Under the pieces are notes generated by a model that was given only the letters and a program-made list of their open reading frames with translations, made no database searches and had not been told where the DNA came from. The position numbers and the translations under genes were made by a program. DNA of 64,000 nucleotides from Bacilli bacterium (lineage in GTDB: Bacteria > Bacillota_I > Bacilli_A > RF39 > UBA660): the NCBI GenBank assembly GCA_017435485.1, contig JAFSEY010000007.1:51819-115818 (forward strand), written 5' to 3'. Shown in pieces: positions 1,566 to 63,600 of this stretch. Position 1 is the first letter of the stretch, and every line of letters starts with the position of its first letter.

Positions 1566-2510
1566 ATGATAAAAAGAAGCGCTTTAAGAAAAATTTGTAT
1601 TTCGACACTGGCCTTAGTAATATTAGGAATTATTTGTGTTTTTCCGGATGCCTATACTCCAAATAAAGTCGAAGAGTCTATTTCTTATACGGAGGCAGAA
1701 AAAAGTGTCATCTATTTACTAGATAAAAATAATTATGTTGCCAGAACTAATGTTATTAAAAAAAACACTGAGACAACAAAATTAATTAAGGAAATAATTA
1801 GTTATTTAATAATTGATAGTGATACAAAAGATTATATCCCAGGTGGTTTTAATTCTTTGATACCAAAAGACACAAAGATATTAAGTATGGATTTAAAAGA
1901 TGGTTTATTGAAAATTAATTTTTCTAAAGAATTTTTAAATATATCTTTAAAACATGAAAATGCAATGATCGAATCAATCGTATTTTCTTTAACAGAAATT
2001 GATGACATTAACCAAATTATGATATTTGTAGAAAATGAAAACTTAACCGAATTACCAAATAGCAAGAAAAAACTCCCTTTAATATTAGATCGAAATTTTG
2101 GCATAAATAAAGTATATGATATAAAAAGTATTAAGGAAACATGTAAAGTTACGTCTTATTATCTTGCTAAAGATGAAAATAATGATTATTATTACGTTCC
2201 AGTTACGACAGTAACCAACAATGATAAAGAAAAAGTGGAAATTATTATTGAACAATTAAAAACCGCTCCAATTTATCAAACTAATTTAATTAGTTTTTTA
2301 CAGGCTAATGCTGAGCTTCTAGATTATGAAATTTTAGAAAATAAAATATCTCTAAGCTTTAATAATTATTTATTTGATGATTTCAATGATAAAACCATTT
2401 TAGAAGAAGTAAAATATGCTATATCCTATTCTATTAGCGATACTTACGGGATAGATATGGTAAGTTATTTGGTTGAAAACGAAAAAATAGATGAATTAAT
2501 TTTAACTTAA
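1566..2510 (+). CDS. gerM: GerM-like sporulation/germination lipoprotein (two GerMN domains)
   Basis: Signal/anchor N-terminus followed by two tandem GerMN-like domains (VIYLLDKNNYV...IPGGFNSLIPKDTKILSMDLKDGLLKINFSKEF...IESIVFSLTEI..., then a second copy). Confidence 0.55.
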   Translation: MIKRSALRKICISTLALVILGIICVFPDAYTPNKVEESISYTEAEKSVIYLLDKNNYVARTNVIKKNTETTKLIKEIISYLIIDSDTKDYIPGGFNSLIPKDTKILSMDLKDGLLKINFSKEFLNISLKHENAMIESIVFSLTEIDDINQIMIFVENENLTELPNSKKKLPLILDRNFGINKVYDIKSIKETCKVTSYYLAKDENNDYYYVPVTTVTNNDKEKVEIIIEQLKTAPIYQTNLISFLQANAELLDYEILENKISLSFNNYLFDDFNDKTILEEVKYAISYSISDTYGIDMVSYLVENEKIDELILT

Positions 2511-16793: not shown

Positions 16794-17561
16794 TTAACTA
16801 ACTTTTATATTTTCATTATAATCGATTAAACTACTTTTGACAATAAAAGATAAATATAATTCATTATTATCAATATAAAAAGCATAATTATTATCATTAA
16901 ATAAATTGTCTAAGGTAGCTCCAATATTTATTACCTCTACTCCATTATCAATTGACTGACTCGCTTGTAAATGACTATTTACTAAGCCTTTAATTGTATC
17001 AAAATTTATATTAAATAATGTGTAAATTTCTTCATTTGATAATATTTTTCCTTTTTCAATCGAAACAATATAACTTTTTACCCCCTTTATTAAGACACCA
17101 TCATAGCAATCAAAATCATAGCTATTAATAACTAATGTAGCATATTTATTAGTTTGATAAACTTCATAATCTCTAGCTTTAGCTTGAAAAATTTCTACCT
17201 CCGGAAACATTATTTCTTTTGTTTCATCTATTGTTTGATCTTTTAAGTAAGTTACTGTGTTTCTTAAAGTATTATTTTCATTTTTTAAAGTATTATTAAT
17301 AACTTCAGCACTTTCTATATTAATTACAGGTTCCATATAAGTTATATCGGGTTCATCATTTATAGTTTCTTTATTTTCAAAATAAATATAATCTTTATTT
17401 TTATCAATTTTAATTTCTTTTTCTTCTACTTTAATTGATTCTTTAGAATCTTTTTTTGTATTATTAACTTGTCTAGTTAAAATATAACCACCTATTATTA
17501 GAGCAATTATAAATCCAAAAAAAGCTATAGCCATAAATTTGTTTTTTGTAGTTTCTTCCAT
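16794..17561 (-). CDS. Hypothetical N-terminally anchored extracytoplasmic protein (possibly DUF4163/DUF3298-like)
   Basis: One TM (FMAIAFFGFIIALIIGGYIL) and a ~220-aa extracellular domain. Occupies the position where pyrH normally sits. Confidence 0.3.
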   Translation of the reverse strand: MEETTKNKFMAIAFFGFIIALIIGGYILTRQVNNTKKDSKESIKVEEKEIKIDKNKDYIYFENKETINDEPDITYMEPVINIESAEVINNTLKNENNTLRNTVTYLKDQTIDETKEIMFPEVEIFQAKARDYEVYQTNKYATLVINSYDFDCYDGVLIKGVKSYIVSIEKGKILSNEEIYTLFNINFDTIKGLVNSHLQASQSIDNGVEVINIGATLDNLFNDNNYAFYIDNNELYLSFIVKSSLIDYNENIKVS

Positions 17562-17563
17562 TT

Positions 17564-18139
17564 TTATTCTCCTAAATAATTATTTAGTCCAGCTTCAATG
17601 TATGATCTTTTTAAATTTTTATTATACTCATTCCAATAATCTTCTTCGCTTATATTCGCCTGTAATCTTGAAGTATCAGAATCAAAATAAATTACATTAC
17701 CATCTTTGATAACTAAGAATGTTGGAGCATCTATATCAACATTACCTTCATCATCTCTAAATAAGTAGTTATTTAATTTTTCAACAATAGTCTCATAAGT
17801 TCCATTATTATCTTTACGATCATTATAAAAATCATAAAAATATATTTTTTCAATTTTTAAATTTTTTGCTATATCATTTAACAAACTCGCGTAATATTCA
17901 CTTTGTTTGCTATTTTCAAATCCCATAAAAATAAGAGCGTTACCACTATTTATCTTTTTTAAAGTTTGAGAAGCATTAATTTTCTCAAAAACGTTATCAG
18001 TAGTTAGAATATTATATTTGTGAGATATGTTATTTTCTTTTTCTTCAAGTTTGTTATAATTTTGTTTACCTATTATTATAAAAGCTATAAGAACTAAAAA
18101 TATTAAAATATATGTTACTATTTTCTTAATGTTTTTCAT
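17564..18139 (-). CDS. Hypothetical N-terminally anchored protein, thioredoxin-fold-like without a CxxC motif
   Basis: TM (IVTYILIFLVLIAFIIIG), then ALIFMGFENS...PTFLVIKDGNVIYF, reminiscent of the thioredoxin fold, but no redox cysteines. Confidence 0.3.
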   Translation of the reverse strand: MKNIKKIVTYILIFLVLIAFIIIGKQNYNKLEEKENNISHKYNILTTDNVFEKINASQTLKKINSGNALIFMGFENSKQSEYYASLLNDIAKNLKIEKIYFYDFYNDRKDNNGTYETIVEKLNNYLFRDDEGNVDIDAPTFLVIKDGNVIYFDSDTSRLQANISEEDYWNEYNKNLKRSYIEAGLNNYLGE

Positions 18140-19102: not shown

Positions 19103-20035
19103 TTAACTTAATGCACTAATTAATTCGTCTTTTTTCATAGTTGAATAACCTTTAATACTTTTTTCTTTAGCTAAAGCTTTTAAATCGGCTAAAGTCATTT
19201 TAGTTAAATCAACTTCTTCTTTTGCTTCTTCAGCAACAACTTCTTCTACTGTTTCTACTTTTTCTTCAACAACTTCAGTTACAACTTCTTTTGTTTCTTT
19301 TTTGTCTTCTTTTGTAGCTTTTTTATCTTCTTCAGTAACATAATCAACCATTTCTAGATTATTTACTTCACAAATTGCATTTGCTAATACTCCTAAAACA
19401 ACCTTAACAGCTCTAACTGCATCGTCATTTCCTGGAATTACAAAATCAACATCATCTGGATCACAGTTTGTATCTACGATTCCAAATACAGGTATATTTA
19501 ATTTACGTGCTTCTCTGATAGCATTAATTTCTTTTTTAGGATCAACGATAATTAATGCATTTGGAAGTTTAACCATTTTTCTGATTCCACATAAAACTTT
19601 ATTTAATTTTTCATATTCTTTTTTAAGTCCGATAACTTCTTTTTTAGGTAATACATCAAATGTACCATTAGCTTCCATAGCTTCGATTTCTTCTAAACGT
19701 TTAACTCTTCTTCTAATTGTACGGAAGTTTGTTAATGTTCCACCTAACCATCTTTCAGTTACATAGTAAGATTCTGATCTTTCAGCTTCTTCTTTTGCAG
19801 CTTCACTTGCTTGTTTTTTTGTACCTACAAATAAGAAAGTACCACCATTTTCAGCAATTTTCTTGATTTCCTCATAAGCTTCTTCAATTTTGTTTTGAGT
19901 CTTTTGCAAGTCGATTATATAAATATCATCCCTTGCAGTAAAAATATATTCTTTCATTTTTGGGTTCCATCTTTTTGTTTGATGTCCAAAATGAACTCCA
20001 GCTTCTAATAAATAACTCATAGAAACTACGGCCAT
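19103..20035 (-). CDS. rpsB: 30S ribosomal protein S2, with an acidic/Lys-Glu-rich C-terminal extension
   Basis: S2 core ([17 protein letters not shown]...) plus a ~70-aa KE-rich tail. Confidence 0.9.
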
Positions 20036-20177: not shown

Positions 20178-20180
20178 GAA

Positions 20181-20227
20181 AAATTTACAAAAAGAATATA
20201 GATAAAATTTACAAAAAGAATATAGAT
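20181..20227. repeat. Perfect tandem direct repeat, 2 x 23 bp (aaatttacaaaaagaatatagat) at a 24-bp period
   Basis: Copy 1 at 20181-20203 and copy 2 at 20205-20227 are identical. The repeat lies just upstream of the putative rpsB promoter. Confidence 0.8.
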
Positions 20228-20480
20228 GATTTTCAATAACCATTCTTAGTCTCTGAGCTAATTAATTAATCTATTTAACTTTTAAATACATTAAAAAATA
20301 TCCCTTTAAAGTCATTGAATTTCAATATCTTTTTGTATTTGTATATTTATGAAATTTCTGTTCTTTTAAAGGCACAAAAAAACACTTCTAAAAAGAAGCG
20401 CTTTTTATGACATTTTATTTAAACTGCCTTTATTATATCTACTCAATGTCCAGTTCAAAATGTCAACATTTTATATTTTA

Positions 20481-22292
20481 TCATAATTCTTTATAGGCAA
20501 TTCCTTTTACCAAAGCAGTTAAATCGTTTACATTAGGTTTACCATTACTTATTGCATCATCTTTAGTTGCTAAATTCCATATAATTTCAGAATCAGGTAA
20601 TTTATATCTTGCCGTATCTATTTTAGCAATATATGAAGCACAATAAATTACATCATTTATATCAACAGTTCCATTTTGATCCCAATCGCCAGGTTTTCCT
20701 GTAGATGATGTTGGCGGTTCTAATCCGCTTATTGCAACATTTGCAGCAGTTTTATATTCCTTATCCTCCACAGAAGCATAATTTGCAGGAATAGCAATTG
20801 AAGTAACATCATTATTAACTAATAACGGCACAGTTACCGTACCGGAAAGATTATATTTAATTTCTCCAGTTTTTAATCTAACAACTTTTTCTGCACTATC
20901 ATAATTATAATATACCCCATCACTAAAATTACCAAGACTAACTCCATCAGGTAATCTAAAAGCAACTACCGCACCATTAGCTCGACCATTTCCCTCAGTA
21001 AAAGTCTGTTCATGACTGCCTTCCTCTATTCCTTCAGCATATTCCGTATTTTTATTTTTTATAGAAATTTTTAAATCAACTTTCATTTTTCCAGTATTAG
21101 CATCAGTTCCTGTCTTAGTTGCACTAAAAGCATTAATATTCAAGTACGGACCAATACAAAATTCATTAACTCCACTAAGTCCACTAGTATCTTTCGACCA
21201 AGCATCTTCAGTGGAATCAAACTGATAAGGCGTAATACAAATTTGCTTATTTAAAAATTCTTTAGGGATTGTAATTGGAACACTAGCAGTTTCATTTATA
21301 TCTATATTAGGCTCTTTATAAACTAAATTAAAAATCAAATTGCCTTTTCTTTCTAAATTAAGATTAGTAAGAGATGAAACATTACCATATGTAGAATCTT
21401 CCGGCAATCGGATTTGTACCAATTTATTATTATATCCCGAATAATAAGACGCTTCATTTGCCAAAGTAGGACGCGCTACAGGTTTAACTAATTCTTCAGA
21501 ATAATACGTTAGGCCATCTCCAAATTGACCAGATTTTTTGAATTTAACTTTTAACGTTGCTGAATAACCATCATTTCCAGTAGTTAATGGCAAATCATGT
21601 AAATCATTTATAACTTTACCATTACTATCAGTTATAGTAATTTCCTGTCTATTTAATGATTTCATAACATTAAACGTAAGTACCTTATAGTGTTGATTAG
21701 TACTACTAAGATTAGAATAACCACTATCCGTAAAACCTTTAACATCTGCAGACATCTTTTTAAGTGTACCATACATAGTATCTTGACCCACTTCGCCAAC
21801 ATATTTATATTTCACTTCAAAAGTAGCAGTCGTCTTAGCTGGAACTTGACCTAGCCTAAATTCCAAAATTTGTGATGTTTCATTAGCTGCTACAGCTCCA
21901 TCAATATCTTCACATGATCGTAAACATTTAATAGAAACTGTAGAGACATTATCTCCAATTTTATATGTTACAGAATCTTTGAAATCCTTTGTACTAGTAT
22001 TTAAAACTCGCACAGCCTTAGGCCAAGGACGCAATTGTACATACATATAATCACTAGCTTTATCACTATTATTTTTTAATGTTAGATAAAAAACTATGTT
22101 TTCACTTTCGTGAACTGCATACTCTTTTAGCCCAAAATCAATTTCCAAATCTGCACTATTGGCAGTCATAAACTCAATATTTTTAGTTTCTGTTTCAATT
22201 TCTTTTTTACTGTTTTTAAAACCATTAATTTCACCAACATTGACAACAATTATCGATATTAACAGCAAAATAAACAATAGTTTCTTTTTCAT
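20481..22292 (-). CDS. Secreted multidomain protein with a C-terminal type-I dockerin
   Basis: Signal peptide, ~520 aa of unassigned beta-rich domains, then a duplicated Ca-binding dockerin segment: GDWDQNGTVDINDVIYCASYIAK and DDAISNGKPNVNDLTALVKGIAY (D/N at positions 1, 3, 5, 9, 12). Confidence 0.5.
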   Translation of the reverse strand: MKKKLLFILLLISIIVVNVGEINGFKNSKKEIETETKNIEFMTANSADLEIDFGLKEYAVHESENIVFYLTLKNNSDKASDYMYVQLRPWPKAVRVLNTSTKDFKDSVTYKIGDNVSTVSIKCLRSCEDIDGAVAANETSQILEFRLGQVPAKTTATFEVKYKYVGEVGQDTMYGTLKKMSADVKGFTDSGYSNLSSTNQHYKVLTFNVMKSLNRQEITITDSNGKVINDLHDLPLTTGNDGYSATLKVKFKKSGQFGDGLTYYSEELVKPVARPTLANEASYYSGYNNKLVQIRLPEDSTYGNVSSLTNLNLERKGNLIFNLVYKEPNIDINETASVPITIPKEFLNKQICITPYQFDSTEDAWSKDTSGLSGVNEFCIGPYLNINAFSATKTGTDANTGKMKVDLKISIKNKNTEYAEGIEEGSHEQTFTEGNGRANGAVVAFRLPDGVSLGNFSDGVYYNYDSAEKVVRLKTGEIKYNLSGTVTVPLLVNNDVTSIAIPANYASVEDKEYKTAANVAISGLEPPTSSTGKPGDWDQNGTVDINDVIYCASYIAKIDTARYKLPDSEIIWNLATKDDAISNGKPNVNDLTALVKGIAYKEL

Positions 22293-22307
22293 ATTTCCCT
22301 CCTAAAA

Positions 22308-23057
22308 CTATACCCTAAAAAATTTAATAGTTTTTTTGTTTTTTATAGTAATTGCCACAATAACAGCCAATCCACCCATTATGAATAGGAAAGGAAGACT
22401 AATACCAGTATCATTTGGTTCTACAGGACATTGTTTTTCATAATCAAGTTTGCTCACGACATCGCCATTACTACCATAAAAAGTATCATCAACTTTTTTA
22501 CAAATATATTTTTTTTCACTATTTGGTTGAATTGGATCGGTTTCAGGTGTCTCAGTAACTTCTTCGATTCTTTTTACAGTAATACTTGAACCTTCAGTAG
22601 CTACTCCATCTTGAGCTGTATTGCTTATATATCCATCAGCAAAAGACATTTTCACCGAATCTCCAACTTTAAAATCATCAGTCACCTTACAAGTAATCTT
22701 AGCCACCGTTCCTGGATTAGAAAATTCATCTGCTGGATTTTGCGCATATACCACTATAACTAATCCAGCAGTCACTGTGAACACGCCCGTTCCCGCAGCA
22801 GTACATTCTTTAATATTTGAAGGTAATTTTTTTAAAGTCAAATTTGAATCATCATTAAATATAAAATCATTTGCTTGTATTCCTCCGACTTTCATATCAG
22901 AATCACCTGGTTTTCCATTAACAGTTAATCCAACAGTAAAAGAATCTCCGCTAAAAGTGGTATCTCCTGTAAGCTCAATAGAATCAGCACATACAATTTC
23001 TGCCGTAAAAACAAACATTGATATTAATAATATTATAATTGAATTGAATTTTTTCAT
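22308..23057 (-). CDS. Cohesin-domain protein with a C-terminal transmembrane anchor
   Basis: Signal peptide, then a ~140-aa cohesin-like beta-sandwich (FTVGLTVNGKPGDSDMKVGGIQANDFIFNDDSNLTL...GVFTVTAGLV...GTVAKITCKVTDDFKVGDSVKMSF), a Thr/Pro linker, and a C-terminal TM (LPFLFIMGGLAVIVAITI) plus KNKK tail. Confidence 0.4.
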   Translation of the reverse strand: MKKFNSIIILLISMFVFTAEIVCADSIELTGDTTFSGDSFTVGLTVNGKPGDSDMKVGGIQANDFIFNDDSNLTLKKLPSNIKECTAAGTGVFTVTAGLVIVVYAQNPADEFSNPGTVAKITCKVTDDFKVGDSVKMSFADGYISNTAQDGVATEGSSITVKRIEEVTETPETDPIQPNSEKKYICKKVDDTFYGSNGDVVSKLDYEKQCPVEPNDTGISLPFLFIMGGLAVIVAITIKNKKTIKFFRV

Positions 23058-23602
23058 TTTTTCTTACCTCTCTTACTCTTATTATTTTTTATTATCAGCA
23101 TTCCAACACATCCCGTTAATAAAGTGATTATTGGAACTAAAATATAAATATAATTTATTTTTTTAGTAATTTCCATTGTCAAATTAACATCGTCAGCTTC
23201 TAATAATGTTTCTGCATCAGCAGCTTGAATATTTCTCAAATTAACAATTGTAGAACCAGTTTTCTTTGTTTTAAATTCTAAAACCCCAACCACATTATCC
23301 TTAGTATCTATATTTAATCTATAAGCTACAATCCTTTCACCAATCATTAAATTAAAATTACTTCTTGATTCATAGTTTACTAATTCTAAATAATCCTTAT
23401 CATATTCTAAATCTGCTTGCACCCCATACAAATTAAAATCTATGGATTCATAATAAATCGGAATCCTTATTACTTTGTTTTTTTCTGCACTCAACTTTAC
23501 TTCATCACTAAATTTTTCATCAAACCCAATTTGTACTCTTTGAGCAAATACAACCGGTAATGATAAAAAAAATACTGTCAGCACTAATAATATTTTTTTC
23601 AT
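23054..23602 (-). CDS. Second cohesin-like protein with a C-terminal transmembrane anchor
   Basis: Signal peptide, a cohesin-like domain (KVIRIPIYYESIDFNLYGVQADLEYDKDYLELVNYES...VGVLEFKTKKTGSTIV), a C-terminal TM (IYILVPIITLLTGCVGMLII) and a KSKRGKKK tail. Overlaps the previous gene by 4 nt. Confidence 0.4.
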   Translation of the reverse strand: MKKILLVLTVFFLSLPVVFAQRVQIGFDEKFSDEVKLSAEKNKVIRIPIYYESIDFNLYGVQADLEYDKDYLELVNYESRSNFNLMIGERIVAYRLNIDTKDNVVGVLEFKTKKTGSTIVNLRNIQAADAETLLEADDVNLTMEITKKINYIYILVPIITLLTGCVGMLIIKNNKSKRGKKK

Positions 23603-23806
23603 TTACATCCCTTTCTAATAAATAATATAATCTTTTTATACTATCCTTTATTATCAATTCAAGTATACTATTAAAACAGCTTCGAGTCAACTAGATATCC
23701 TTTTCAGATAATTAGTTTACATCCTTTAAATATATTATTTCTTATTTTTATATTTAACGGAAACTCCCAAATAAATACACTTTTTAACCACAAAAAACAA
23801 CTGAAA

Positions 23807-24400
23807 TTAATCAATTGTCTTAGCATACAAACAGCCACAATAATTTTGGCGATATAAATTATACTTTTTTGCTAGCTCAATACTTTTTAAATAGCCATCA
23901 TTTTTCTTAAAGTCACCATATAAATATTTTATCCCTAATTCTTCTTCTATTAATCTACCTAGTTCATTTATTAATTGACTATTTTTGTGGGGTGAAACAG
24001 TTAATGTTGTTGCAAAATAATCAAATTGGTTTTCTTTAGCAACTAAAGCTATTTTACGCATTCTTAGTCCAATGCATTTTTCACACCTTTTGCCACCTTC
24101 TTTTTCCAGCTCTAAACCCTCTACTACCTTTTCATAATCTTCACCATGATAGTCGCAATCTAAATAAGATACATCATCTAATTGATTTAGTAATTTAATT
24201 TGTTCTTTTTTTCTTTTTTCATATTCTTCAATAGGTTGGATATTTGGATTATAATAAATAACTGTTATATCAAAATAATCTTTCATAACATTGATAACAT
24301 GTGTTGAACAAGGCCCACAACAACTATGTAACAGCACTTTGGGACGCCCTTGTAAATTTTTGACAATTTCTTCAAATACTAAATCATAATTTGTTTTCAT
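23807..24400 (-). CDS. queH: Epoxyqueuosine reductase QueH (DUF208)
   Basis: LLHSCCGPCS and the CEKC..C...CGC cysteine clusters typical of QueH. Confidence 0.7.
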   Translation of the reverse strand: MKTNYDLVFEEIVKNLQGRPKVLLHSCCGPCSTHVINVMKDYFDITVIYYNPNIQPIEEYEKRKKEQIKLLNQLDDVSYLDCDYHGEDYEKVVEGLELEKEGGKRCEKCIGLRMRKIALVAKENQFDYFATTLTVSPHKNSQLINELGRLIEEELGIKYLYGDFKKNDGYLKSIELAKKYNLYRQNYCGCLYAKTID

Positions 24401-27127: not shown

Positions 27128-28456
27128 TTAATTTTTATTTTGATGTTTTAAGATATATTCTTGATAATGCTTGCTTTTGTCTGCATAATTTTTAAAAACA
27201 TTATAACTAGGAGCAGCCGGCGAAAGCAAGACAGCATTGTTTTTCTTGGTTATTTCAAAAGCCTTATCAACGGCATCTTCTAACTTTTCAATATAATAAA
27301 TATTTTTAGAACAATTCTTAACTAAACTTTCATATATATATTTTCCGGTATCTGGTTGGCAAATTATATTTTCCAATTTGCTATTAGCTAAAAACTCAAT
27401 AAAACTATCATAATTAATATTACGATCCATTCCGCCGATAATTAAGGTTTCGATATTAGGAATGGCTAAGATGGAATTTTGCGTAGCAGCTGGAATTGTT
27501 GCTAAGGTATCATCATAAAAATTGATATCATTAACAGTAGCAATTAAACTCATCCGATGCTCTAACCCTTTAAAATTAGTAATTGTACGTCTAACTTTTT
27601 CTAAATCTAAATTTAACAGTTTTGCTACTTGTAAAGCCATCATAATATTTAAACTATTAAAATCTCCAATTAAGTTTCTTTTTAGATTCAAATCGAATAT
27701 TTCATTGTCATCTAAATAAATCTTATTATGTTTTATATTATCTTTACCAAGTCCAATTAAAGTACTTTTAATATTAGTTTTAGCTATATTATGAATTAAA
27801 TCATCATTGTCTTTTAAATATATGCCATAGTTATCTTCACTTTGATATCTAAACATATTTAATTTGCCATGATAGTAATTATCTATAGTTTTAAAGTAGT
27901 CCAAATGTTCTTCAAATAAATTGGTTATAATTCCAATATTTGGTGATCTTTTTATATCATATAGTTGATGACCACTCATTTCAGCAACAATGATACTATC
28001 TTCATTAAAATCATCGATTAAATCAAAAATAGGAATACCAATATTACCCACTAAATAAACATTATCATTTTGCGCTTTTATTATTTCATAAATCAAACTA
28101 GTAGTTGTACTTTTTCCTTTGGTACCAGTTACACCGATCACAAAAGCAGCAGTAAAATTTAATAATAACGAAAATTGGGATACAATCTCACATTTATATT
28201 CTTTATCTATTAAACAAATTCCTGGGGTTTTGATAACTACTTCATACTTATCTAAATTATCTAGATAGGTTGCACCAAGAACATATTTTGTATTTTCATA
28301 ATCCACTTTTTCAATGTTCTCATTTTGATCTATTATTGTTATTTCTTTATCCGGTAAATATCTTCTTAAAAAATTATAAGTAGACTTACCTTCCAACCCA
28401 AAACCTAAGATAGCAATTTTTTTATCTTTTAAATAATCTAAAATAGCATTAATCAT
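27128..28456 (-). CDS. murD: UDP-N-acetylmuramoyl-L-alanine--D-glutamate ligase
   Basis: Mur ligase: GVTGTKGKSTTTSLIYEII P-loop, middle and C-terminal domains present. Confidence 0.85.
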   Translation of the reverse strand: MINAILDYLKDKKIAILGFGLEGKSTYNFLRRYLPDKEITIIDQNENIEKVDYENTKYVLGATYLDNLDKYEVVIKTPGICLIDKEYKCEIVSQFSLLLNFTAAFVIGVTGTKGKSTTTSLIYEIIKAQNDNVYLVGNIGIPIFDLIDDFNEDSIIVAEMSGHQLYDIKRSPNIGIITNLFEEHLDYFKTIDNYYHGKLNMFRYQSEDNYGIYLKDNDDLIHNIAKTNIKSTLIGLGKDNIKHNKIYLDDNEIFDLNLKRNLIGDFNSLNIMMALQVAKLLNLDLEKVRRTITNFKGLEHRMSLIATVNDINFYDDTLATIPAATQNSILAIPNIETLIIGGMDRNINYDSFIEFLANSKLENIICQPDTGKYIYESLVKNCSKNIYYIEKLEDAVDKAFEITKKNNAVLLSPAAPSYNVFKNYADKSKHYQEYILKHQNKN

Positions 28457-29783
28457 TTTTATTCATCTGCCTTTTTATAATATTTTCAAATTCTAATGGA
28501 AGTAAATGATCTGTGTTATATTCATCTAGTAATTCATCTTCTATAAGCTCAAAATTTTCTTTATAATATTTTAATAAATATGGTAAGTTTTCTTTATTTT
28601 TCTTTATTGCTTTACTTACAGCATAACCCACTTCTTCAACTGTTCCGACACATTCAAAAGGTTTAGTTTCTTTTTTTCCTAATAATTCTAAGAAAGTATC
28701 TAAAAGTTTTTCATCTTCATATAAATTTTTACCAAAGATATCACTTAAATATTCTAAATCCAAAAAGGGGCTTAGAATTATAAAAACAAATAAACACTTT
28801 GGACAATCACCACACCATTTCCAAGGAAGGGTTTTACTTCCCACATTACAGCTTTTAAAAATATGATGATATTTTTCTAATTTAGAAAATAAATATGCTA
28901 TTTGAATTTCTTTTAAAGGGCGAAGAACAGAAAAATAATGAATATCTAAATTAAAGTATTTTCTAGTATAGTTATTAAAATCTTTTTCAAATTCAATACT
29001 TTTAGAATATTGGTGATTAATTTTAGTATTTAAAACTGTTGGTTCATTAGCACTACTTTCGTTAGATAATACGATATATTTTCGATTAGTTAAGTAAGCT
29101 ATTAAATAACTATAAAAAGCTACTATACTACTAAATGGTGTATGTCCATTTAAATAACCTTGTTTGTTTAAAGAAAGCATATTTTGATCAAGAATCCTTG
29201 TTACATTGATATTGTCATATCCAGCAACTTCAATGCACTTTTCATGTATTTCTTTAGCATTAATTGTAAAACAAACATTGTCCATATCTTTTAAAGTTTC
29301 TAAACTAACGATGGAATCTTTTCCCCCACCAACACAAATAATATTTCCAGAAGATTTAAAATCTGGATCAGCATAATTTATTTTATCTTTTTGACATTTA
29401 AAAGAAACTAAAGCATCTTCAGTTACATCTATATTATTTACGTAAAAAAATTCTCCTAATCCAAGAAAATAAAGTTTACGCCACCAATTTAAAGCGCTTT
29501 CATCTAAATAACCAGCTTTAATAATAAAATTTTTAGGACAACTTACTTTGTAATAACTAATAGCTTCTGCCATACCAATATTAAATATTAAATATTTTAA
29601 TAATTCTTTATTAATATTTTGATTAGTTATAATATTTTTAGCAACTTTAAAACAAGGATTAAACGTCGATAATCCTTCAATTTCCATATTATATGTTACA
29701 ACTAAACTATCATCTATTTCTTCAATTTTATAATCATGATATATAAAATTAGAATACATACTTCTAAGTTCATTAAAATTCAT
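28449..29783 (-). CDS. PP-loop (adenine-nucleotide alpha-hydrolase) superfamily protein of unknown function, translationally coupled to murD
   Basis: 444 aa with ~150 aa of N-terminal domain, then a PP-loop-like ICVGGGKDSIVSL motif and a C-terminal Cys cluster (CNVGSK...WKWCGDCPKC). No N-terminal glutaminase domain. Its stop overlaps the murD start by 8 nt. Confidence 0.4.
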   Translation of the reverse strand: MNFNELRSMYSNFIYHDYKIEEIDDSLVVTYNMEIEGLSTFNPCFKVAKNIITNQNINKELLKYLIFNIGMAEAISYYKVSCPKNFIIKAGYLDESALNWWRKLYFLGLGEFFYVNNIDVTEDALVSFKCQKDKINYADPDFKSSGNIICVGGGKDSIVSLETLKDMDNVCFTINAKEIHEKCIEVAGYDNINVTRILDQNMLSLNKQGYLNGHTPFSSIVAFYSYLIAYLTNRKYIVLSNESSANEPTVLNTKINHQYSKSIEFEKDFNNYTRKYFNLDIHYFSVLRPLKEIQIAYLFSKLEKYHHIFKSCNVGSKTLPWKWCGDCPKCLFVFIILSPFLDLEYLSDIFGKNLYEDEKLLDTFLELLGKKETKPFECVGTVEEVGYAVSKAIKKNKENLPYLLKYYKENFELIEDELLDEYNTDHLLPLEFENIIKRQMNKND

Positions 29784-31870: not shown

Positions 31871-33514
31871 TTAATTATTCTTCTTTGTAGTTAAAGAAAA
31901 TTTAAAACCAAATATAGAAACTATAATTAATAATCCATAAAGAATAAAATTATCTCCTGTTGTAGGATTGTTATCAACATTATTTATTGAATCCTTTTCT
32001 TCAGTTTTTGGTTCTTCTTTTACTTCAGTATTATTAGAATCTTCTTTTAGTTCTTCTTTTTCTTGTTTTTCTAAAACTATTTTTTCAAATTCAACTTTTA
32101 TTTCTACATTTTCATTAGGCATGATAAATTTATTATCTTTTACCTCTATTTCATTTGCTGTAACACTTTTTAATTTATAACCTTCTTTTGATATTATTGT
32201 TAGTGTTACGGTTTCACCATTTATTGCTGTATTTTTATCAGACCTAACTGTACCTTCAACTGTTTCTTTTACAGTAATTGTGTATCTAGTTCCAACAATA
32301 TAACTACCATCCTCTTGTTTAGAACTTTCTACATTTTTGTTTATATAATCTTCTATTACGTTAGAACTAAATTCACCACCGGATATAAATTCTTTAACAT
32401 TTTTATCAATATCTAAAGCCGGCTTTTTAGTATCCTCAGCAATAAAAGTACCACCATTAATTAAAAGACCTCCCTCAACTAATGAAGATGAAGTTGTTGT
32501 TTTATTGCCATCTTTATCTGTTGAGATACCTTCATATAAAGCGTTACCATTTTTACTTGTAAAAGTCGCTCCAGATATATTTATTTTAACATTATTAGAA
32601 TAATTTTTTGTGGCTGTAATACTAATTGCAGCTCCTGTAGCCTCTGAACCATTATAGTTTCCACTTGCTGGGTCATAATATTCTCCAGTGGCCGTAAAAT
32701 TTCCTCCTGTTATATTAAACTCTCCTGCTTTAATTGCAGCAGCTTCGGTTCCTGTAATATCACCAGCTGAAATATTCCATTTTGCGTAACCACTTGCAGA
32801 TAATGCTGGCGCACTATCTTTGGCCGGAACTCCAGTTGTACCTACTGTTGTAGTAATCTCTCCTCCTGTTATATTAATCACTGGAATATTTCCACTATCT
32901 TTTTTGATGTTCCCGTTGACAAATATTCCAACACTTCCGTCATTATAACCATTATTACCATTAATTGCGTTAATAGTTCCAGCAAGTTCAACTACAGCAC
33001 CATAAGATGCATTGTTTCCAGCGTGTCTTACAACAATACCATAATTAGCACTTAAACTAGCAGCTTCTTTTATGACAGCAGCAGCTTTTGTTATAGGGTC
33101 AGAATCAGTTTCACTGCCTGTAACACCTATAATTTTTCCACCATTACTAGTATTAGTAAAAGTACCGTTTTCTAATATTAAAGTAGTTCCAGGATACACA
33201 TCAAACATATAACCCGCTGTGTCAGTAGTTATTTTACCATTTCCAGTTATAGTTAGGATTCCACTACCGTTTAAAACAATTGTACTATTAACATCAAGAG
33301 TATGACTATTAAGGTCAATCGTTACCTCTCTACCCCCAGTAATTGTAATTGGGTCTGCCATGGTAAAATCTGATGTTATTTTACAAATGCTTTCAGTACC
33401 ACTTATACAATCACTTAAATCTGTTGAATTTGAAATCGCATTAACGTTTATAGTCAATGCTAGCAATGTTATAACAAACATTGAAAGGTAATTTAATTTC
33501 CTCACTTCTTCCAT
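31871..33514 (-). CDS. Cell-wall-anchored surface protein with parallel beta-helix-like Gly/Thr/Asn-rich repeats and a C-terminal NPTTG sorting signal
   Basis: Signal peptide, then ~350 aa of repetitive G/T/N/A-rich segments (ITGGEITTTVGTTG..., NITGGNFTATG..., ISGATFTSKNG...), a Glu/Lys-rich stalk, and an NPTTG + hydrophobic stretch + KKNN sorting signal (fits the class-B motif NPxTG/N). Confidence 0.5.
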   Translation of the reverse strand: MEEVRKLNYLSMFVITLLALTINVNAISNSTDLSDCISGTESICKITSDFTMADPITITGGREVTIDLNSHTLDVNSTIVLNGSGILTITGNGKITTDTAGYMFDVYPGTTLILENGTFTNTSNGGKIIGVTGSETDSDPITKAAAVIKEAASLSANYGIVVRHAGNNASYGAVVELAGTINAINGNNGYNDGSVGIFVNGNIKKDSGNIPVINITGGEITTTVGTTGVPAKDSAPALSASGYAKWNISAGDITGTEAAAIKAGEFNITGGNFTATGEYYDPASGNYNGSEATGAAISITATKNYSNNVKINISGATFTSKNGNALYEGISTDKDGNKTTTSSSLVEGGLLINGGTFIAEDTKKPALDIDKNVKEFISGGEFSSNVIEDYINKNVESSKQEDGSYIVGTRYTITVKETVEGTVRSDKNTAINGETVTLTIISKEGYKLKSVTANEIEVKDNKFIMPNENVEIKVEFEKIVLEKQEKEELKEDSNNTEVKEEPKTEEKDSINNVDNNPTTGDNFILYGLLIIVSIFGFKFSLTTKKNN

Positions 33515-33646: not shown

Positions 33647-34495
33647 ATGAAAGAAAAAAAGAAGTTCCGTTTAAAGAAAAAATATAGAGCAATAATTAGA
33701 GTTACTTTTTTTACAATTTCTCTAACAATATTTATATTCAGTATATTTAAAATTATCTTATGGAACTTAGAAAATAGAAAAACCGAAAAACTAGAAAAAA
33801 AAATAATAGAAAAAACCGAAATAATTGAAATATCGGAAATAAACAATGAAGAAAACTCTAATTTAGTTAACGAACCAGTATTGCAAACAGACATATATTG
33901 GAAATATAAAGACACAGCGTTAATTGATGTCAATTTAAATGAACTAAAAAAAGATAACAAAGACACTATAGGTTGGATTCAAGTATTAGGGACAGATATT
34001 AATTATCCCTTTGTCCAAAGCGGAGATAATGATTATTATTTAAAACATGATTTTGCTAAAAGTAAAAATACTGGAGGATGGATATTTTTAGATTATCGAA
34101 ACAACATTAATAATTTAAATGATAATAATATTATTTATGGACATATGCGAAAAAACGGCTCAATGTTTGGCAGTTTAAAAAATGTATTAACAAGCAATTG
34201 GCAAAATAATTCCGATAATCATATCGTTAAAATATCTACTGAAGAATATAGTTATTTATTTCAAGTATTTAGCATATATACAATTCCAGTTGAAACATAT
34301 TATATTCAAACTGATTTTAGTGATATTGAAAACTATAAAAATTTTTTAAACACCATTGTCAATCGAAGTATTTATAATTTTAATACAGAAGTTAATGAAA
34401 AAACTAAAGTATTAACTTTATCAACATGTCATAACAATAATGACCGCTTAGTAGTTCACGCCAAATTAATAAAAGCAGAATCTAAAAATAATTAG
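33647..34495 (+). CDS. srtB: Class B sortase
   Basis: N-terminal anchor, then DTIGWIQVLGTDINYPFVQ, GWIFLDYRN, and the catalytic His (YGHM), TLSTCHNNNDRLVVHAKLI (TLxTC) and Arg motifs. Confidence 0.75.
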   Translation: MKEKKKFRLKKKYRAIIRVTFFTISLTIFIFSIFKIILWNLENRKTEKLEKKIIEKTEIIEISEINNEENSNLVNEPVLQTDIYWKYKDTALIDVNLNELKKDNKDTIGWIQVLGTDINYPFVQSGDNDYYLKHDFAKSKNTGGWIFLDYRNNINNLNDNNIIYGHMRKNGSMFGSLKNVLTSNWQNNSDNHIVKISTEEYSYLFQVFSIYTIPVETYYIQTDFSDIENYKNFLNTIVNRSIYNFNTEVNEKTKVLTLSTCHNNNDRLVVHAKLIKAESKNN

Positions 34496-41854: not shown

Positions 41855-43468
41855 CTATTTTCTAATTTCTTCTTTTTCACATATACTAGCAAAATCATTT
41901 AAAACTAATCTAAAGGTATTGATTATATCTGTACTGAACTTTTTATTTTCTAAAGCAATTATATTAGCAGCAATAGCTGAATAATTAGTTTCTTTTTCAT
42001 CTACTATATAATTAGCATATATAATTGCTAATGATACAATAGAAACATATAATGGAATATCTTTTCCACTTATTCTTTTTGGATAACCAGTACCATCATA
42101 ATTTTCATGATGAGATAAGCAAATATTGTAAGCATAATCATTTAAAATCTGATCTTTATTATAAAATAACCTTTTTATTAATAAAGCACCATTAGAAGAA
42201 TAATCACTTAATCTTTTTTCTTCATCTATAGAAATATTTTCATTATTGAGAACTTTATTAGGAACTATTAATTTACCAATATCATAATATTTAGAAGCAA
42301 TACAAAGTTTATTTATTAATGGTAATGTTAATCCACAATTAGGATTAGTTTCTAAATATTTCAAAGCAAACACTTCGGTAAGTTTACTCACCAAATTAAT
42401 TTTCTCTTCATTATCCTTTAAATAAACATTTTCTAATTTTTCTAAAATACTATTAACTTCTTTATCCTTATTAATAATTAGACTAGTTAAAGAATTACTA
42501 TTCATATATAATTTAATAAAATTATTTATTCTAAGTCTTATAATTTCTAAATTGAATGGTTTTTCTAACATATCAGCTATATTATAATTATAAACTCTTT
42601 GTCTCGTTTCTTTATCTTCAGCTGCGCTTATAATAATGACCGGTAACTTATTTAATAAATTTTTATCCTTTAAATATTCTAATACAGCAAAACCATCTAA
42701 TACAGGCATCGCAATATCTAAAAATATTCCCACATAATTTAAAATATTTTCGCTAGAATTATAGTTACTTTCTAATAAATCAATTGCTTCCTTTCCGTTA
42801 CTAGCAGTAACAATATTAAAATCTTTTTCAAAAGCTTTTTTTAAAATATTTCTAGTAATTGTATCATCATCAACTATAAGTAACGAATTTTTGGTTTTGT
42901 TTGTCTCAGCAATAATATTCATTTCTAATTTTTTATTTAAACTTGGATAATTTCTAGTTAATTCTTCTAATAATGATTTTATATAATTAAATCCAGGATT
43001 TTCTTCTTTAGCAATATCAATTGTATTATATATTTTTAAAATACTTTCTGAAAAATCTTTAACCATTTTTTGAATTTCTTCATCATTTACTTCTTTGTTT
43101 TTACTAAACGCATTTACTTGTGAAGTCATTATTATAATTAATTGATTATTATCATAGTTAACTTTTTTTGCAATCATAATATAATTATCGTATAAATAAC
43201 TTTCTTTTTTTTGAAAAGAAAAAGTTATTTCGTTCTCAAAATTACCAGATATAATTTTAATATAATTTTCTATATCCGATGAATTTATATAAGTTTTTTC
43301 TGATTCTACAAAATCTAAAAATGATCTGGTTTCTTTAAATTTAACATAGTTGTTTTCAAAATTATATGTATTAACTATATCTTTTCTTAAATCAACAACA
43401 TAAACATTAGAAAATGTTTTTAATAATGCTTCTCCAACAACATTTAGATATTCACTTCCAGGCATCAT
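41855..43468 (-). CDS. Response regulator: unknown N-terminal domain + REC + degenerate HD-GYP domain
   Basis: REC with the Asp acceptor (IFLDIAMPVLDG), S/T (IIISA) and Lys (LEKPF). C-terminal HHENYDGTGYP (GYP motif), but the HD dyad reads YD (ASKYYDIGK) and the upstream metal-binding His is absent. Confidence 0.7.
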   Translation of the reverse strand: MMPGSEYLNVVGEALLKTFSNVYVVDLRKDIVNTYNFENNYVKFKETRSFLDFVESEKTYINSSDIENYIKIISGNFENEITFSFQKKESYLYDNYIMIAKKVNYDNNQLIIIMTSQVNAFSKNKEVNDEEIQKMVKDFSESILKIYNTIDIAKEENPGFNYIKSLLEELTRNYPSLNKKLEMNIIAETNKTKNSLLIVDDDTITRNILKKAFEKDFNIVTASNGKEAIDLLESNYNSSENILNYVGIFLDIAMPVLDGFAVLEYLKDKNLLNKLPVIIISAAEDKETRQRVYNYNIADMLEKPFNLEIIRLRINNFIKLYMNSNSLTSLIINKDKEVNSILEKLENVYLKDNEEKINLVSKLTEVFALKYLETNPNCGLTLPLINKLCIASKYYDIGKLIVPNKVLNNENISIDEEKRLSDYSSNGALLIKRLFYNKDQILNDYAYNICLSHHENYDGTGYPKRISGKDIPLYVSIVSLAIIYANYIVDEKETNYSAIAANIIALENKKFSTDIINTFRLVLNDFASICEKEEIRK

Positions 43469-43480
43469 GACACCACCTTT

Positions 43481-43840
43481 TTACAAATTTTTATAATTTC
43501 CAATTAAAGTTTTAACTTCAACTACAATATTTTCTAAGCTTTTAATATTTTCATTCACAAAAGCTACATTTCCAGCCTTACTAGCTAATTCGTGTTCATA
43601 AGCTGCATCAGCTAATTTAGTAAGTCCCAAAGTTCTAGCATTGCTTTTTAAAGCATGAACTAAAATTGCATAGTTTGACAAATCATTTATACTATTTTTT
43701 AATGTGTTAAATTGTTCATCTAAACCTTCATAAAACTCTAAAAGAATTTCATGATACATCTGCAAATCTCCAGTATAATTAATTACTGTATTTAAATCTA
43801 TTCCGGCAGTAACTAAGTAATTTTTTTGATTCTCACTCAT
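43481..43840 (-). CDS. Histidine phosphotransfer (Hpt) protein
   Basis: 119 aa, four-helix-bundle pattern with HALKSNARTLGL (HxxKGxxxxxG). Confidence 0.65.
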   Translation of the reverse strand: MSENQKNYLVTAGIDLNTVINYTGDLQMYHEILLEFYEGLDEQFNTLKNSINDLSNYAILVHALKSNARTLGLTKLADAAYEHELASKAGNVAFVNENIKSLENIVVEVKTLIGNYKNL

Positions 43841-43879
43841 TTTAAACTTCCCTTCTATTATTTATTTTAACATAATAAA

Positions 43880-45724
43880 TTAATTTTTAAAATGTTTCTC
43901 TAATAATTTATTTAAATCACTAATATTAATAGGTTTTGATAAATATTCATCAAACCCTTCTTTAAGATACATTTCCCTCATCCCCGTAATAGCATTTGCA
44001 GTTAAAGCAACTATAGGAGGAATATTATAGGATTTTAAACTTTTTAAAATATGTAATACCTCTATACCATCCATGCCTGGCATCATATGATCCAAGAAAA
44101 TCAGATCAAACACTTCTCCAGATTTTATAAGATCAACACAAGCCTTACCATTATTCAAAGTAGTAATTTGAAATTTATAATTATCCAATATTCTCTTAGC
44201 GACTTTTAAATTAAGTTCATTATCATCAACTAATAAAATTTTATATTTAGAACAATCAAAATATTTATCTACAAACTCAGTCGTTTTATATTCAGTATTA
44301 AATAAATCTCCCATAGGACTTCTATCTATAATTTTTTGACTTAAATCGATATAAAAATCTGTTCCTGCTCCATATTTACTTTCAAACCAAACTTTTCCTT
44401 TAAGTAAATTTACTAGTTTTTTTGTTATTACTAAACCTAATCCAGTCCCTTCTATCTCATTTTGCATAGCAGATTCTAAACGACTAAATTTTTCAAATAA
44501 TTTATCATAATCCTCTGCTTTTATACCTAATCCAGTATCTGAAACACGAAAATGTAAATTAACCCAATCCTTTTCCACTTGACCAGTTATAGCTAATTCA
44601 ATTCGACCTACTTCTGTATATTTTACAGCATTACTTAGTATATTTAAAAGAATTTGAAATAACTTTGTTTTATCACCATAGAGCCTGCTAGGCAAAGAAT
44701 TATCAATATTAGTAATAAATTTCACTTTGCCACTTGATAGTCTTGCATCAATAATACTATGTAATTCTAAAATAATATTAGCTAAGCTATACTCCCTTTC
44801 ATCTAAAGTTTCTTCTCCATTTTCAATTTTAGAAATATCTAAAATATTATTAATTATTTCTAATAAATTTCCACCAGCTACATATATATGTTCAATATCT
44901 TTTCTAGCTGCTTCTTCATCAAATTCAGGTTCATTTATTAAAGATTCACTAAACCCTATAATTGCATTCATAGGAGTTTTAATTTCATGAGACATGTTTG
45001 ATAAAAAATCAGATTTTGCTCGATTAGATTCTTCTGCTTTTTTCTTAGCCTTTTCTAATTCATTAATTAAATATAAATCAGGATTTTCAACTGAAAAATA
45101 AATAAGATACAGTTTAAACGCCAAACTACTAGTCAAAATATATACTGTTGGAAAAACAAATGAAAGGGGAACTGATATTAGTGTTTCAATAATACTAATA
45201 ATAATTGGTAGCCTTCTATTAAAAGCAACGACAGTTTTATATTTAGAAACAAAATAAATAGCAACTAAAACTAATATAAGCCCTAAAATATAGACAAAAT
45301 ATAAAGCCTTACCAGACAAATAACCGGTACCATCTACAACTATATATTCTAATGGTAAGAAAAAGAAAATAATACTAACTACACCAAACAATATCCAAAA
45401 AGGACGATATTTATTTAATTTTGTTTCAGCATCTTTATTAGTATTAATAAAAGATAAAATATAACGGGCCATTATAGTCAACCAAGCTAATATCAATAAA
45501 CAATGTACTCGACATAAAATTTCATTGACAACGACCATTTTTAGATGATTTTTTATAGTAAATACCGTAACTATTTCGGAAACTAAAACAAATAATAAGC
45601 AAACTAATAAAGCACTAAAATATTTATTTTCATAATTAGTAATTTTTGTTTTATATTTATAAATCAATAATAATAGAATTGTAAAAATTAAACTTCCCAA
45701 GGAAAGTAAAATTGTTTGAATCAT
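43880..45724 (-). CDS. Hybrid sensor histidine kinase (multi-TM sensor + HisKA + HATPase_c + REC)
   Basis: ~6-7 N-terminal TM helices, H-box [18 protein letters not shown] boxes, and a C-terminal receiver (LLVDDNELN...[11 protein letters not shown]...SKP). Confidence 0.75.
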
Positions 45725-45737
45725 ATAAAATCACCTC

Positions 45738-54651: not shown

Positions 54652-54664
54652 AAAACCATCCTTT

Positions 54665-54905
54665 CTAAATAAAAAAAACATCCATCCCAAAGGACGAATG
54701 TTATCGTGGTACCACCTTATTTTTTTCTTAAAGTCTTAATGCGACTAACATTATATCTTACTAGCTATTCAGATATACAACTCCCAAGCTACCTTCAATA
54801 ATTATCATCATTAGTTTACACCAACCACTAACTCTCTATAGTAAATTAATTATTTACTCCTCTTGTTCTTCGTTTTTACACGATTATTTTATCAAAGTTT
54901 AATTT
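54665..54905 (-). promoter_or_regulatory. T-box riboswitch leader of valS
   Basis: Minus strand carries the T-box consensus AAGGTGGTACCACGATAA, then terminator CATTCGTCC-TTTG-GGATGGATG + UUUUUUUU. Stem-I segment AGAGAGTTAGTGGTTGGTG lies upstream. Confidence 0.7.
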
Positions 54906-63339: not shown

Positions 63340-63352
63340 AAACACTTTCCTT

Positions 63353-63600
63353 TCTAAATAAAAAAACACTCATCCCCAAAGGACGAATGTTATCGTGGTA
63401 CCACCTTATTTTTTTCTCTTTTTTATAACGCAGAATCTCTGCGAATTATCTTACTATTTTCAGATAATTAACTCCAAAGTGATATTAAATAGCTATTCTT
63501 TATTAGTTTGCACCAACCACTAACTCTCTTAAAAGCATTCGCTATTTAACGTGTCTTTTTCAATGTATTTCCTGTATTATACTATTAAATGTTTTATTTT
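63353..63600 (-). promoter_or_regulatory. T-box riboswitch leader of ileS
   Basis: T-box AAGGTGGTACCACGATAACATTCGTCCTTTGGGGATGAGTG + U-run. Its 3' ~48 nt are identical to the valS leader. Confidence 0.7.

Follow-up and report, generated by a model that had tools for sequence, protein, structure and literature searches.

A block of three genes in the 64-kb stretch of DNA analysed here (contig JAFSEY010000007.1; the whole stretch is called the window below) is probably a self-contained operon for a minimal, non-cellulosomal cohesin-dockerin surface display system. The block lies on the minus strand between rpsB and queH. Its genes, subsequently referred to as CohA, CohB and DocP, appear as 'hypothetical protein' in the deposited annotation (MBQ9834085.1 and neighbours). 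The core reading, which an earlier note on this DNA had proposed, is that of two surface proteins with a single cohesin each and a dockerin protein without a carbohydrate-active domain, and it is supported at the level of the protein families. Judging from the sequences, we regard all three modules as homologues of cohesins and dockerins that have diverged too far for the curated thresholds. The features of the block are the following:

23054-23602, minus strand: CohA gene, an open reading frame (ORF) of 182 amino acids (aa) with a signal peptide (residues 1-20, cleavage between VFA and Q), one divergent cohesin and a C-terminal transmembrane (TM) segment with a basic tail
23162..23542, minus strand: cohesin domain of CohA, approximately residues 21-147, as delimited by the family alignment and the hhalign region
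23057..23158, minus strand: probable membrane anchor of CohA, hydrophobic residues 149-171 and the tail KNNKSKRGKKK
22308-23057, minus strand: CohB gene, an ORF of 249 aa with a signal peptide (cleavage between VCA and D), a divergent cohesin, a linker, a Cys-bracketed stalk module and a sorting-signal-like tail
22563..22985, minus strand: cohesin-like domain of CohB, approximately residues 25-165, as delimited by alignments and the hhalign region
22425..22508, minus strand: Cys-bracketed module of about 28 aa, YICKKVDDTFYGSNGDVVSKLDYEKQCP, CohB residues 184-211
22311..22418, minus strand: sorting-signal-like segment of CohB, with PNDTG at residues 214-218, hydrophobic residues 219-238 and the tail KNKKTIKFFRV
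20481-22292, minus strand: DocP gene, an ORF of 603 aa with an N-terminal hydrophobic signal or anchor, roughly 510 aa of unassigned body and a dockerin at the C-terminus
20484..20690, minus strand: dockerin module with two repeats, DocP residues 535-603
23662..23690, minus strand: promoter-like site (TTGACT, 17-nucleotide spacer, TATACT) in the gap between queH and CohA, with 10 of 12 consensus matches
20374..20408, minus strand: terminator-like hairpin with a U-run, about 75 nucleotides (nt) past the DocP stop codon

The three genes have exactly the coordinates reported before, including the 4 nt (23054-23057) shared by the CohA and CohB ORFs; 15 nt separate CohB from DocP. Upstream of the block lies queH (23807-24400, PF02677), with a gap of 204 base pairs (bp) before CohA. 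Downstream lies rpsB (19103-20035, Ribosomal_S2), followed by tsf. The hairpin behind DocP has a predicted RNA folding energy of -14.8 kcal/mol (z = -5.3), and none of 200 shuffled sequences folded equally well. Since the block has its own promoter-like site and terminator hairpin, and since there is a separate promoter-like site for rpsB, it reads as an independent transcription unit. Promoter-like sites are no commoner in this AT-rich region than in shuffled sequences, and the one before CohA is a consensus match only; the output of a simple terminator scanner did not contain the hairpin. The content of guanine plus cytosine (GC) is 0.29-0.35 in the block and 0.22-0.33 in the flanks, a mild rise and no clear anomaly. 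The three genes are not chance ORFs, because each has a full-length orthologue in another metagenome-assembled genome (MAG; BLASTP E 5e-26, 3e-27 and 3e-112 for CohA, CohB and DocP), the gene order recurs elsewhere, and the dockerin is matched by a hidden Markov model (HMM) built without it, as described below. The spacer between DocP and rpsB measures 445 bp and holds a perfect 24-bp tandem duplication, two copies of AAAATTTACAAAAAGAATATAGAT at 20180-20227, which adjoins the upstream side of the rpsB promoter-like site.

A word-indexed homologue search returned only self-matches and one DocP orthologue. An exhaustive search of 1.84 billion representatives, in which the ectodomains of CohA and CohB were joined as one query, yielded nine CohA-like proteins, eight of them 161-189 aa long, and about four full-length CohB-like proteins of 244-342 aa. 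In the ninth CohA-like protein, of 696 aa (P0038), the CohA-like domain is located at the N-terminus. An NCBIfam scan of the block proteins gave nothing useful.

The cohesin assignment of CohA holds at the family level. The Pfam model Cohesin (PF00963, 139 positions long, cut-off 24.1 bits) matched 8 of 11 members of the CohA family, and three relatives of the window protein exceeded the cut-off (P0012 with 31.6, P0011 with 28.5 and P0025 with 24.4 bits), with matches covering model positions 3-131 of 139. When the family profile was compared with solved structures, cohesins came out on top (3l8q, E 0.004; 7uvg 'Coh5', E 0.006), and the NagJ cohesin structures 2jh2, 2ozn and 2o4e were found among the weaker matches. 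The remaining architecture can be read in the CohA sequence itself, in agreement with its earlier description as a signal peptide, a cohesin-like domain and a C-terminal TM segment with a basic tail. By eye, the N-terminus shows MKK, then hydrophobic residues and, as an AxA-like site, VFA before Q. The TM segment and basic tail are also present in 9 of 10 aligned relatives, while P0034 stops before them, and none of the aligned family members contains an xPxTG motif. A hydrophobic helix and a basic tail without xPxTG argue for a membrane anchor at the C-terminus of CohA.

CohB starts in the same manner (by eye: MKK, a hydrophobic stretch and the AxA-like site VCA before D), and its cohesin-like domain is followed by a linker rich in Thr, Pro and Glu. 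Its relationship to cohesins could be traced through homologues. The orthologue in a related locus, L001, scored 16.1 bits against Pfam Cohesin, and a full-length CohB homologue of 258 aa (L015:1751-2527, BLASTP 5e-23) reached 31.9 bits, above the cut-off. When the profile of the CohB ectodomains was aligned to that of the CohA family with hhalign, the probability was 97.0% (E 9.1e-11 over 102 columns), and the controls, one reversed and 20 column-shuffled, all stayed at or below 0.3%. After two members had been added to the CohB profile, its sole matches among solved structures were the cohesins 1tyj and 2y3n, both weak (E 0.1). The profile before this addition had matched a porin and other unrelated structures weakly, not cohesins, and was set aside. 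CohB can thus be placed in the Cohesin family only transitively, via these homologues.

The Cys-bracketed module behind the linker is kept in 5 of 7 members of the CohB family. As a repeat of about 31 aa, it follows the pattern C-x-[IV]-x-D-G-x-Y-[YF]-...-G-x-x-V-[ST]-x-x-E-Y-x-K-x-C. CohB contains a single copy, and up to 10 tandem copies form a stalk before xPxTG signals in other proteins (P0009, P0017, P0029 and P0040). A Pfam scan of the repeat detected no family that covers it, only spurious KOW and MORN_2 fragments.

The earlier note had stated that the 249-aa protein lacks a sortase motif. This is wrong for the CohB family, because at the position aligned with PNDTG its relatives carry NPDTG, NPDSG, NPHTG, SPKTG or APETG, that is, signals of the NPxTG, SPxTG and APxTG types, and the tail has the three-part architecture of a sorting signal. 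We took as class B sortase substrates proteins with a pentapeptide of the NPxTG, NPxTN or (S/P)PxTG type, a hydrophobic segment and a basic tail, encoded in a genome with a class B sortase. In the window, CohB has the hydrophobic segment and the basic tail, and a class B sortase is encoded 10 kb from the block, next to a further surface protein:

33647..34495, plus strand: class B sortase, outside the block (TIGR03064 sortase_srtB, 169 bits, cut-off 153.75; Pfam Sortase, E 2e-13)
31871..33514, minus strand: surface protein of 547 aa with an NPTTG signal, a TM segment, a basic tail and a Flg_new_2 domain

This sortase is the candidate enzyme for sorting signals of the CohB type. The 547-aa protein, whose gene is transcribed divergently from the adjoining sortase gene, shows which sorting motif the host genome uses. 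In L001, some 1.5 kb separate the cohesin-dockerin cluster from the orthologue of the sortase gene; the place beside the sortase is taken there by this cluster and in the window by the 547-aa protein.

The third protein, DocP, has a full-length orthologue (P0002) with 41% identity and E 3e-112. Type I dockerins consist of two tandem 12-residue Ca2+ loops with Asp or Asn at positions 1, 3, 5, 9 and 12, each followed by a helix. Loop 1 of DocP (DWDQNGTVDIND, residues 536-547) is canonical, with D, D, N, D and D at these positions. A leave-out dockerin HMM, built from eight relatives with exclusion of the window sequence and its closest relative, matched DocP residues 537-600 with 35.7 bits (E 8e-11) over both repeats, and in a six-frame translation of the 64 kb the DocP ORF was its sole match. 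The claim of a canonical first repeat and a recognisable variant second one at the C-terminus of the 603-aa protein is thereby supported at the family level. Paralogues and orthologues of DocP in three related loci (L001, L012 and L013) scored 16.7-25.2 bits against Pfam Dockerin_1 (PF00404, cut-off 22.9 bits). A profile of five C-termini retrieved solved dockerins first (best 6kg9, E 8.2e-7), and the profile of the full-length family matched dockerins only. For the body of DocP, the full-length family profile gave no homologue among solved structures, and neither internal repeats nor similarity to the cohesin profiles could be detected. A DUF11 match in the body (E 0.025) was weak and absent from the orthologues and was not used.

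The arrangement of the three genes is not confined to the window. In Bacilli of the ruminant gut, five more loci have the cohesin pair beside dockerin genes, or six if CohA alone is counted:

L001: Doc386, Doc507, CohA, CohB, DocP595, Doc673; one of the first two dockerin proteins has a Cleaved_Adhesin domain, and Doc673 is a DocP paralogue
L012: CohA, CohB, DocP597
L013: CohA, CohB, DocP603, located between topA and dapA-murL
L015: Doc380, CohA, CohB, directly upstream of the same genes (for 191 aa, 255 aa and frr) as come after tsf in the window
L014: CohB, a third cohesin-like gene (NPHTG), CohA, and a 650-aa dockerin and BspA-like leucine-rich-repeat protein
L011: a DocP-like gene, then CohA

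Protein identity across these loci is only 28-45%. CohA and CohB are tightly spaced throughout, overlapping by up to 4 nt or lying at most 2 nt apart, and the chromosomal position of the module is different in every locus with readable flanking genes. This combination of shared tight linkage and differing positions speaks for a functional cassette that changes place or is rearranged. With the window counted, a complete or partial DocP-family gene stands beside CohA and/or CohB in 5 of 7 loci; it follows CohB directly in four of them (gaps of 9-15 nt) and precedes CohA in L011. A genome scan with DocP found only the already known goat-cecum MAG, and two metagenome scans for related loci gave no match.

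We could also make some observations on individual loci. The 650-aa protein of L014 (3259-5211) has its dockerin N-terminally, right after the signal peptide, followed by many BspA-like leucine-rich repeats, and two of the three cohesin-like genes of this locus carry NPHTG signals. The 191-aa and 255-aa membrane proteins, encoded between tsf and frr at 16794-18139 (minus strand) in the window, have no Pfam family on record; the pair is kept in L015 (2586-3930), directly after the cohesin pair and with no rpsB-tsf between.

Two further statements of the earlier note stand in part. That the block has a single ligand is true within the 64-kb window, which contains one dockerin ORF and two cohesin ORFs; in the related loci, however, one to four dockerin genes lie beside the cohesin pair. 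Accessory acquisition of the block is in line with the module lying at different places in the relatives, but neither flanking direct or inverted repeats of note nor mobility genes were found at the block, and DocP had no matches in plasmids and phages. For these reasons we do not retain an origin from a mobile element, and horizontal acquisition is not demonstrated.

These observations suggest how the block may work. CohA would be exported and kept in the cytoplasmic membrane by its C-terminal TM segment and poly-basic tail, with its one cohesin outside. CohB would be exported as well; its cohesin, a distant relative of that of CohA, would sit on a short linker and a stalk module bracketed by a disulfide. 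In the relatives, CohB would be linked covalently to peptidoglycan via the class B sortase-type signal, whereas the window protein with its PNDTG may be processed less efficiently or left embedded in the membrane. DocP, with a presumably beta-rich body and no recognisable enzyme domain, would bind one or both cohesins through its dockerin in a Ca2+-dependent manner and thus be held on the surface. The likely role would be the display of adhesins or surface structures in the ruminant gut rather than polysaccharide breakdown. We propose an adhesive role because the dockerin partners in related genomes include a Cleaved_Adhesin protein and a BspA-like leucine-rich-repeat protein. For DocP itself, the word adhesin rests on analogy with this cargo, since its body lacks a detectable homologue outside its own family.

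A number of results weigh against this reading. The HMM searches that had been proposed as a check gave a mixed answer: relatives of all three proteins match the Pfam models and the leave-out HMM is strong, but the window proteins themselves are below threshold or without a match. CohA reaches 20.2 bits against Pfam Cohesin (E 7.5e-4, residues 38-119) and thus stays under the cut-off of 24.1, CohB has no Pfam match of any kind, and DocP does not match Dockerin_1 even at E values up to 10. The window dockerin alone retrieves solved dockerins weakly, with E 0.2-0.5 and via the first repeat. Single-sequence AlphaFold2 models of CohA and CohB have a mean predicted local distance difference test (pLDDT) score of 45.6 and 42.0, respectively, and the ectodomains are mostly beta-strand at low confidence. 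Being unreliable, these models do not confirm the nine-stranded beta-sandwich jelly-roll of cohesins. In loop 2 of the dockerin (DAISNGKPNVND), positions 1, 5, 9 and 12 fit, but positions 3 and 8 hold Ile and Pro, respectively, and the linker before this loop is 7-8 residues longer than in the orthologues. Because of these substitutions and the insertion, Ca binding or dual-mode binding of the DocP dockerin may be impaired. However, the loop 2 variant is kept in L011 (DSTSNGKPNIMD), which argues for selection and not decay. The sorting signal of the window CohB reads E-P-N-D-T-G, with the proline shifted by one position relative to the class B pentapeptides, so that anchoring of this CohB in the wall is uncertain. 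Detectable homologues of the DocP body are confined to its own small family, four genes in the related loci. Finally, the predicted pairing of CohA or CohB with DocP derives from homology and leaves the partner cohesin unspecified, and other partners may lie outside the visible 64 kb.

This last point leads to a different explanation, according to which the modules are genuine and yet not mutual partners. The cohesins would hold dockerins encoded elsewhere in the genome, DocP would dock on another receptor or on one of the cohesins, and the adjacency would reflect co-regulation of surface proteins instead of a closed unit with two receptors and one ligand. As is known from cellulosome genetics, many of the dockerin genes of a characterised system can lie scattered over the genome, and the visible genome portion here is 64 kb. 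Moreover, two dockerin sequence classes and several kinds of cargo occur beside the same cohesin pair in the related loci, and the neighbouring dockerin protein of L015 falls outside the DocP family. What speaks for mutual partners is the recurrence of a DocP-family gene next to CohA or CohB in five of the seven loci, together with the failure to detect a second dockerin ORF in the window. We therefore regard scattered partners as unlikely, and the closed three-gene display unit as the better account of the block.

Another question concerns the state of DocP, which had been described as secreted. This is not established, as the N-termini of its orthologues look like signal anchors. In the orthologues of L001 (595 aa), L012 (597 aa) and L013 (603 aa), 17-20 hydrophobic residues are followed at once by charged residues, with no AxA site, in contrast to the clear sites of CohA and CohB. 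DocP may thus be anchored N-terminally and not free, as read by eye. On this basis it could be a type II membrane protein whose dockerin is captured by CohB in the wall or CohA in the membrane, which would create a two-point tether across the envelope or a link between cells. In the window copy, however, the hydrophobic core (LLFILLLISIIVV) is shorter and cleavage between ING and F is possible, the N-terminus was judged by eye, and such a protein would be a variant of the proposed display system and not exclusive of it. We consider it rather improbable as an explanation in its own right. About equally doubtful is a more elaborate version, a lineage-specific tether spanning the envelope, in which the N-terminal anchor of DocP sits in the membrane, its dockerin is bound to the wall-linked cohesin, and the two dockerin classes map one-to-one onto the two cohesin classes. 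If this mapping were true, a three-gene cassette of wall-bearing, low-GC gut Bacilli would provide two orthogonal docking channels.

It is very improbable that the resemblance is a relic or spurious and that generic beta-sandwich proteins happen to neighbour a protein with a non-docking EF-hand-like tail: the sub-threshold or missing Pfam matches, the degenerate second Ca loop and sorting motif and the low-confidence AlphaFold2 models of CohA and CohB are outweighed by family members above curated cut-offs, strong profile-profile and leave-out HMM statistics with clean controls, the retention of the variant repeat in L011 and a gene linkage kept across deep divergence.

The block comes from the MAG of an uncultured 'Bacilli bacterium' with about 27% GC, from samples of a ruminant gastrointestinal series; the nearest relative is a goat-cecum MAG. 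Two genes in the window are indicative of sporulation:

58643-60121, minus strand: SpoIVA, complete, with three domains (353.7 bits)
1566-2510, plus strand: GerM-like 'Germane' protein

Together with a cell-division and cell-wall cluster that contains three class B penicillin-binding proteins, they identify the host as a wall-bearing endospore former. The Pfam scan took in 25 window proteins, namely CohA, CohB, DocP, the sortase, the adjacent 547-aa protein and a further 20 large ORFs, and no carbohydrate-active domain was found in any of them. The host, called a 'non-cellulolytic-looking spore former' in the earlier note, is presumed to be non-cellulolytic.

Several other features of the window do not touch the block. 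The ribosomal protein S2 encoded by rpsB (19103-20035, minus strand) is 310 aa long and has an unusual extension, in which an acidic linker leads to a Rho_N-like domain (PF07498) at the C-terminus. T-box leaders at 54687-54879 and 63376-63572 (both minus strand) lie upstream of genes for class I aminoacyl-tRNA synthetases, valS-like at 52120-54690 and ileS-like at 60241-63369, and a tRNA gene is located at 2753-2826. The region 41855-47603 (minus strand) contains two adjacent paralogous genes for hybrid histidine kinase/response regulators (614 and 621 aa), followed by a 537-aa response regulator with an HD domain. MurL (Pfam MurL_N and MurL_epimerase_C) is encoded as a pair with a Mur ligase at 27128-29783 (minus strand), upstream of murG and murB; every related locus that extends this far has kept the pair.

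How does the block compare with known cohesin-dockerin systems? A cellulosome, or a multi-enzyme complex of the amylosome type, requires a scaffoldin with at least two cohesins and carbohydrate-active enzymes fused to dockerins. Each cohesin protein of the block has one cohesin, and no glycoside hydrolase, esterase, lyase or carbohydrate-binding domain was detected in the dockerin proteins of the window and the six related loci, which contain Cleaved_Adhesin, leucine-rich repeats or unassigned sequence only. The block is therefore not a cellulosome, having no multi-cohesin scaffoldin and no dockerin-borne carbohydrate-active enzyme.

Docking outside cellulose degradation in an animal-associated, spore-forming Firmicute is a trait that the block shares with NagJ and NagH of Clostridium perfringens. 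There, cohesin and dockerin modules are fused to secreted enzymes and toxins and give rise to soluble enzyme complexes. The block, in contrast, has small, stand-alone cohesin proteins with an apparent anchor in the envelope, and its dockerin cargo is free of enzyme domains. The CohB family resembles the ScaE type of Ruminococcus flavefaciens, in which a single cohesin, a stalk and a cell-wall sorting signal form a tether to peptidoglycan. ScaE carries an LPXTG-type signal and anchors a multi-scaffoldin cellulosome that is loaded with carbohydrate-active enzymes, whereas the CohB family has NPxTG, SPxTG or APxTG (PNDTG in the window) and is accompanied by neither a multi-cohesin scaffoldin nor enzyme cargo in the loci seen.

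Sortase-anchored scaffoldins of Ruminococcus are documented (PMC11557425). The closest counterparts of CohA are single-cohesin proteins with a C-terminal TM segment, termed 'non-SLH anchoring scaffoldins', from Clostridia that are non-cellulolytic or have simple cellulosomes, for example Lachnoclostridium sp. MSJ-17, H. luporum and C. cibarium (PMC11557425). Like CohA, they consist of a signal peptide, one cohesin and a C-terminal TM anchor, and their hosts are likewise presumed to be non-cellulolytic, with most dockerin partners not being lignocellulose-active glycoside hydrolases (PMC11557425). They belong to Clostridia, however, and were found by standard cohesin models, while the present cohesin is below the cut-off and comes from a Bacilli MAG of about 27% GC. 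They also differ from CohA in that the latter is always paired with a second cohesin bearing a sorting signal. Ruminococcal cohesins have been reported to be too divergent for detection thresholds as well (PMC11557425), and the accessible part of another study describes the same divergence problem for them (PMC13463774).

In Ruminococcus bromii, likewise a gut Firmicute, the amylosome (PMC4611034) also arranges dockerin proteins on the surface by means of a small number of cohesin proteins, one with a sortase signal, and does not serve cellulose degradation. It differs in that GH13 amylases and starch-binding proteins make up its cargo and that enzymes and dockerins are further parts of its scaffoldins, none of which was seen in the present loci. 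In the rumen metagenome survey by Bensoussan et al., carbohydrate-active modules were present in 24.3% of 649 dockerin proteins, about half of the rumen cohesins could not be typed, and the cohesin-dockerin strategy appeared phylogenetically broad (PMC6487960). That survey was done by BLAST against known modules and yielded mostly Ruminococcus, other Firmicutes and Bacteroidetes; its accessible part contains no mention of a paired cohesin operon with a DocP-family partner (PMC6487960).

The general understanding of cohesin-dockerin systems is unchanged by the block. Its value is that three 'hypothetical' genes receive a reading at the level of function, and that two very divergent cohesin families and a family of dockerin proteins missed by Pfam thresholds become visible. 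The range of docking is extended to uncultured, spore-forming Bacilli of the ruminant gut, with cargo that looks adhesive or structural and not enzymatic. If binding is confirmed, the compact cassette with its two anchors of differing attachment chemistry could be used as a small orthogonal pair for surface display. Non-cellulosomal pairs, TM-anchored single cohesins, sortase-anchored cohesins and rumen dockerin proteins that are mostly not carbohydrate-active are already documented; what is specific to the present case is the lineage within the class Bacilli with its GC content of about 27%, the extreme degree to which the modules have diverged, the fact that two cohesins with different anchors always come as a pair, and the DocP family.

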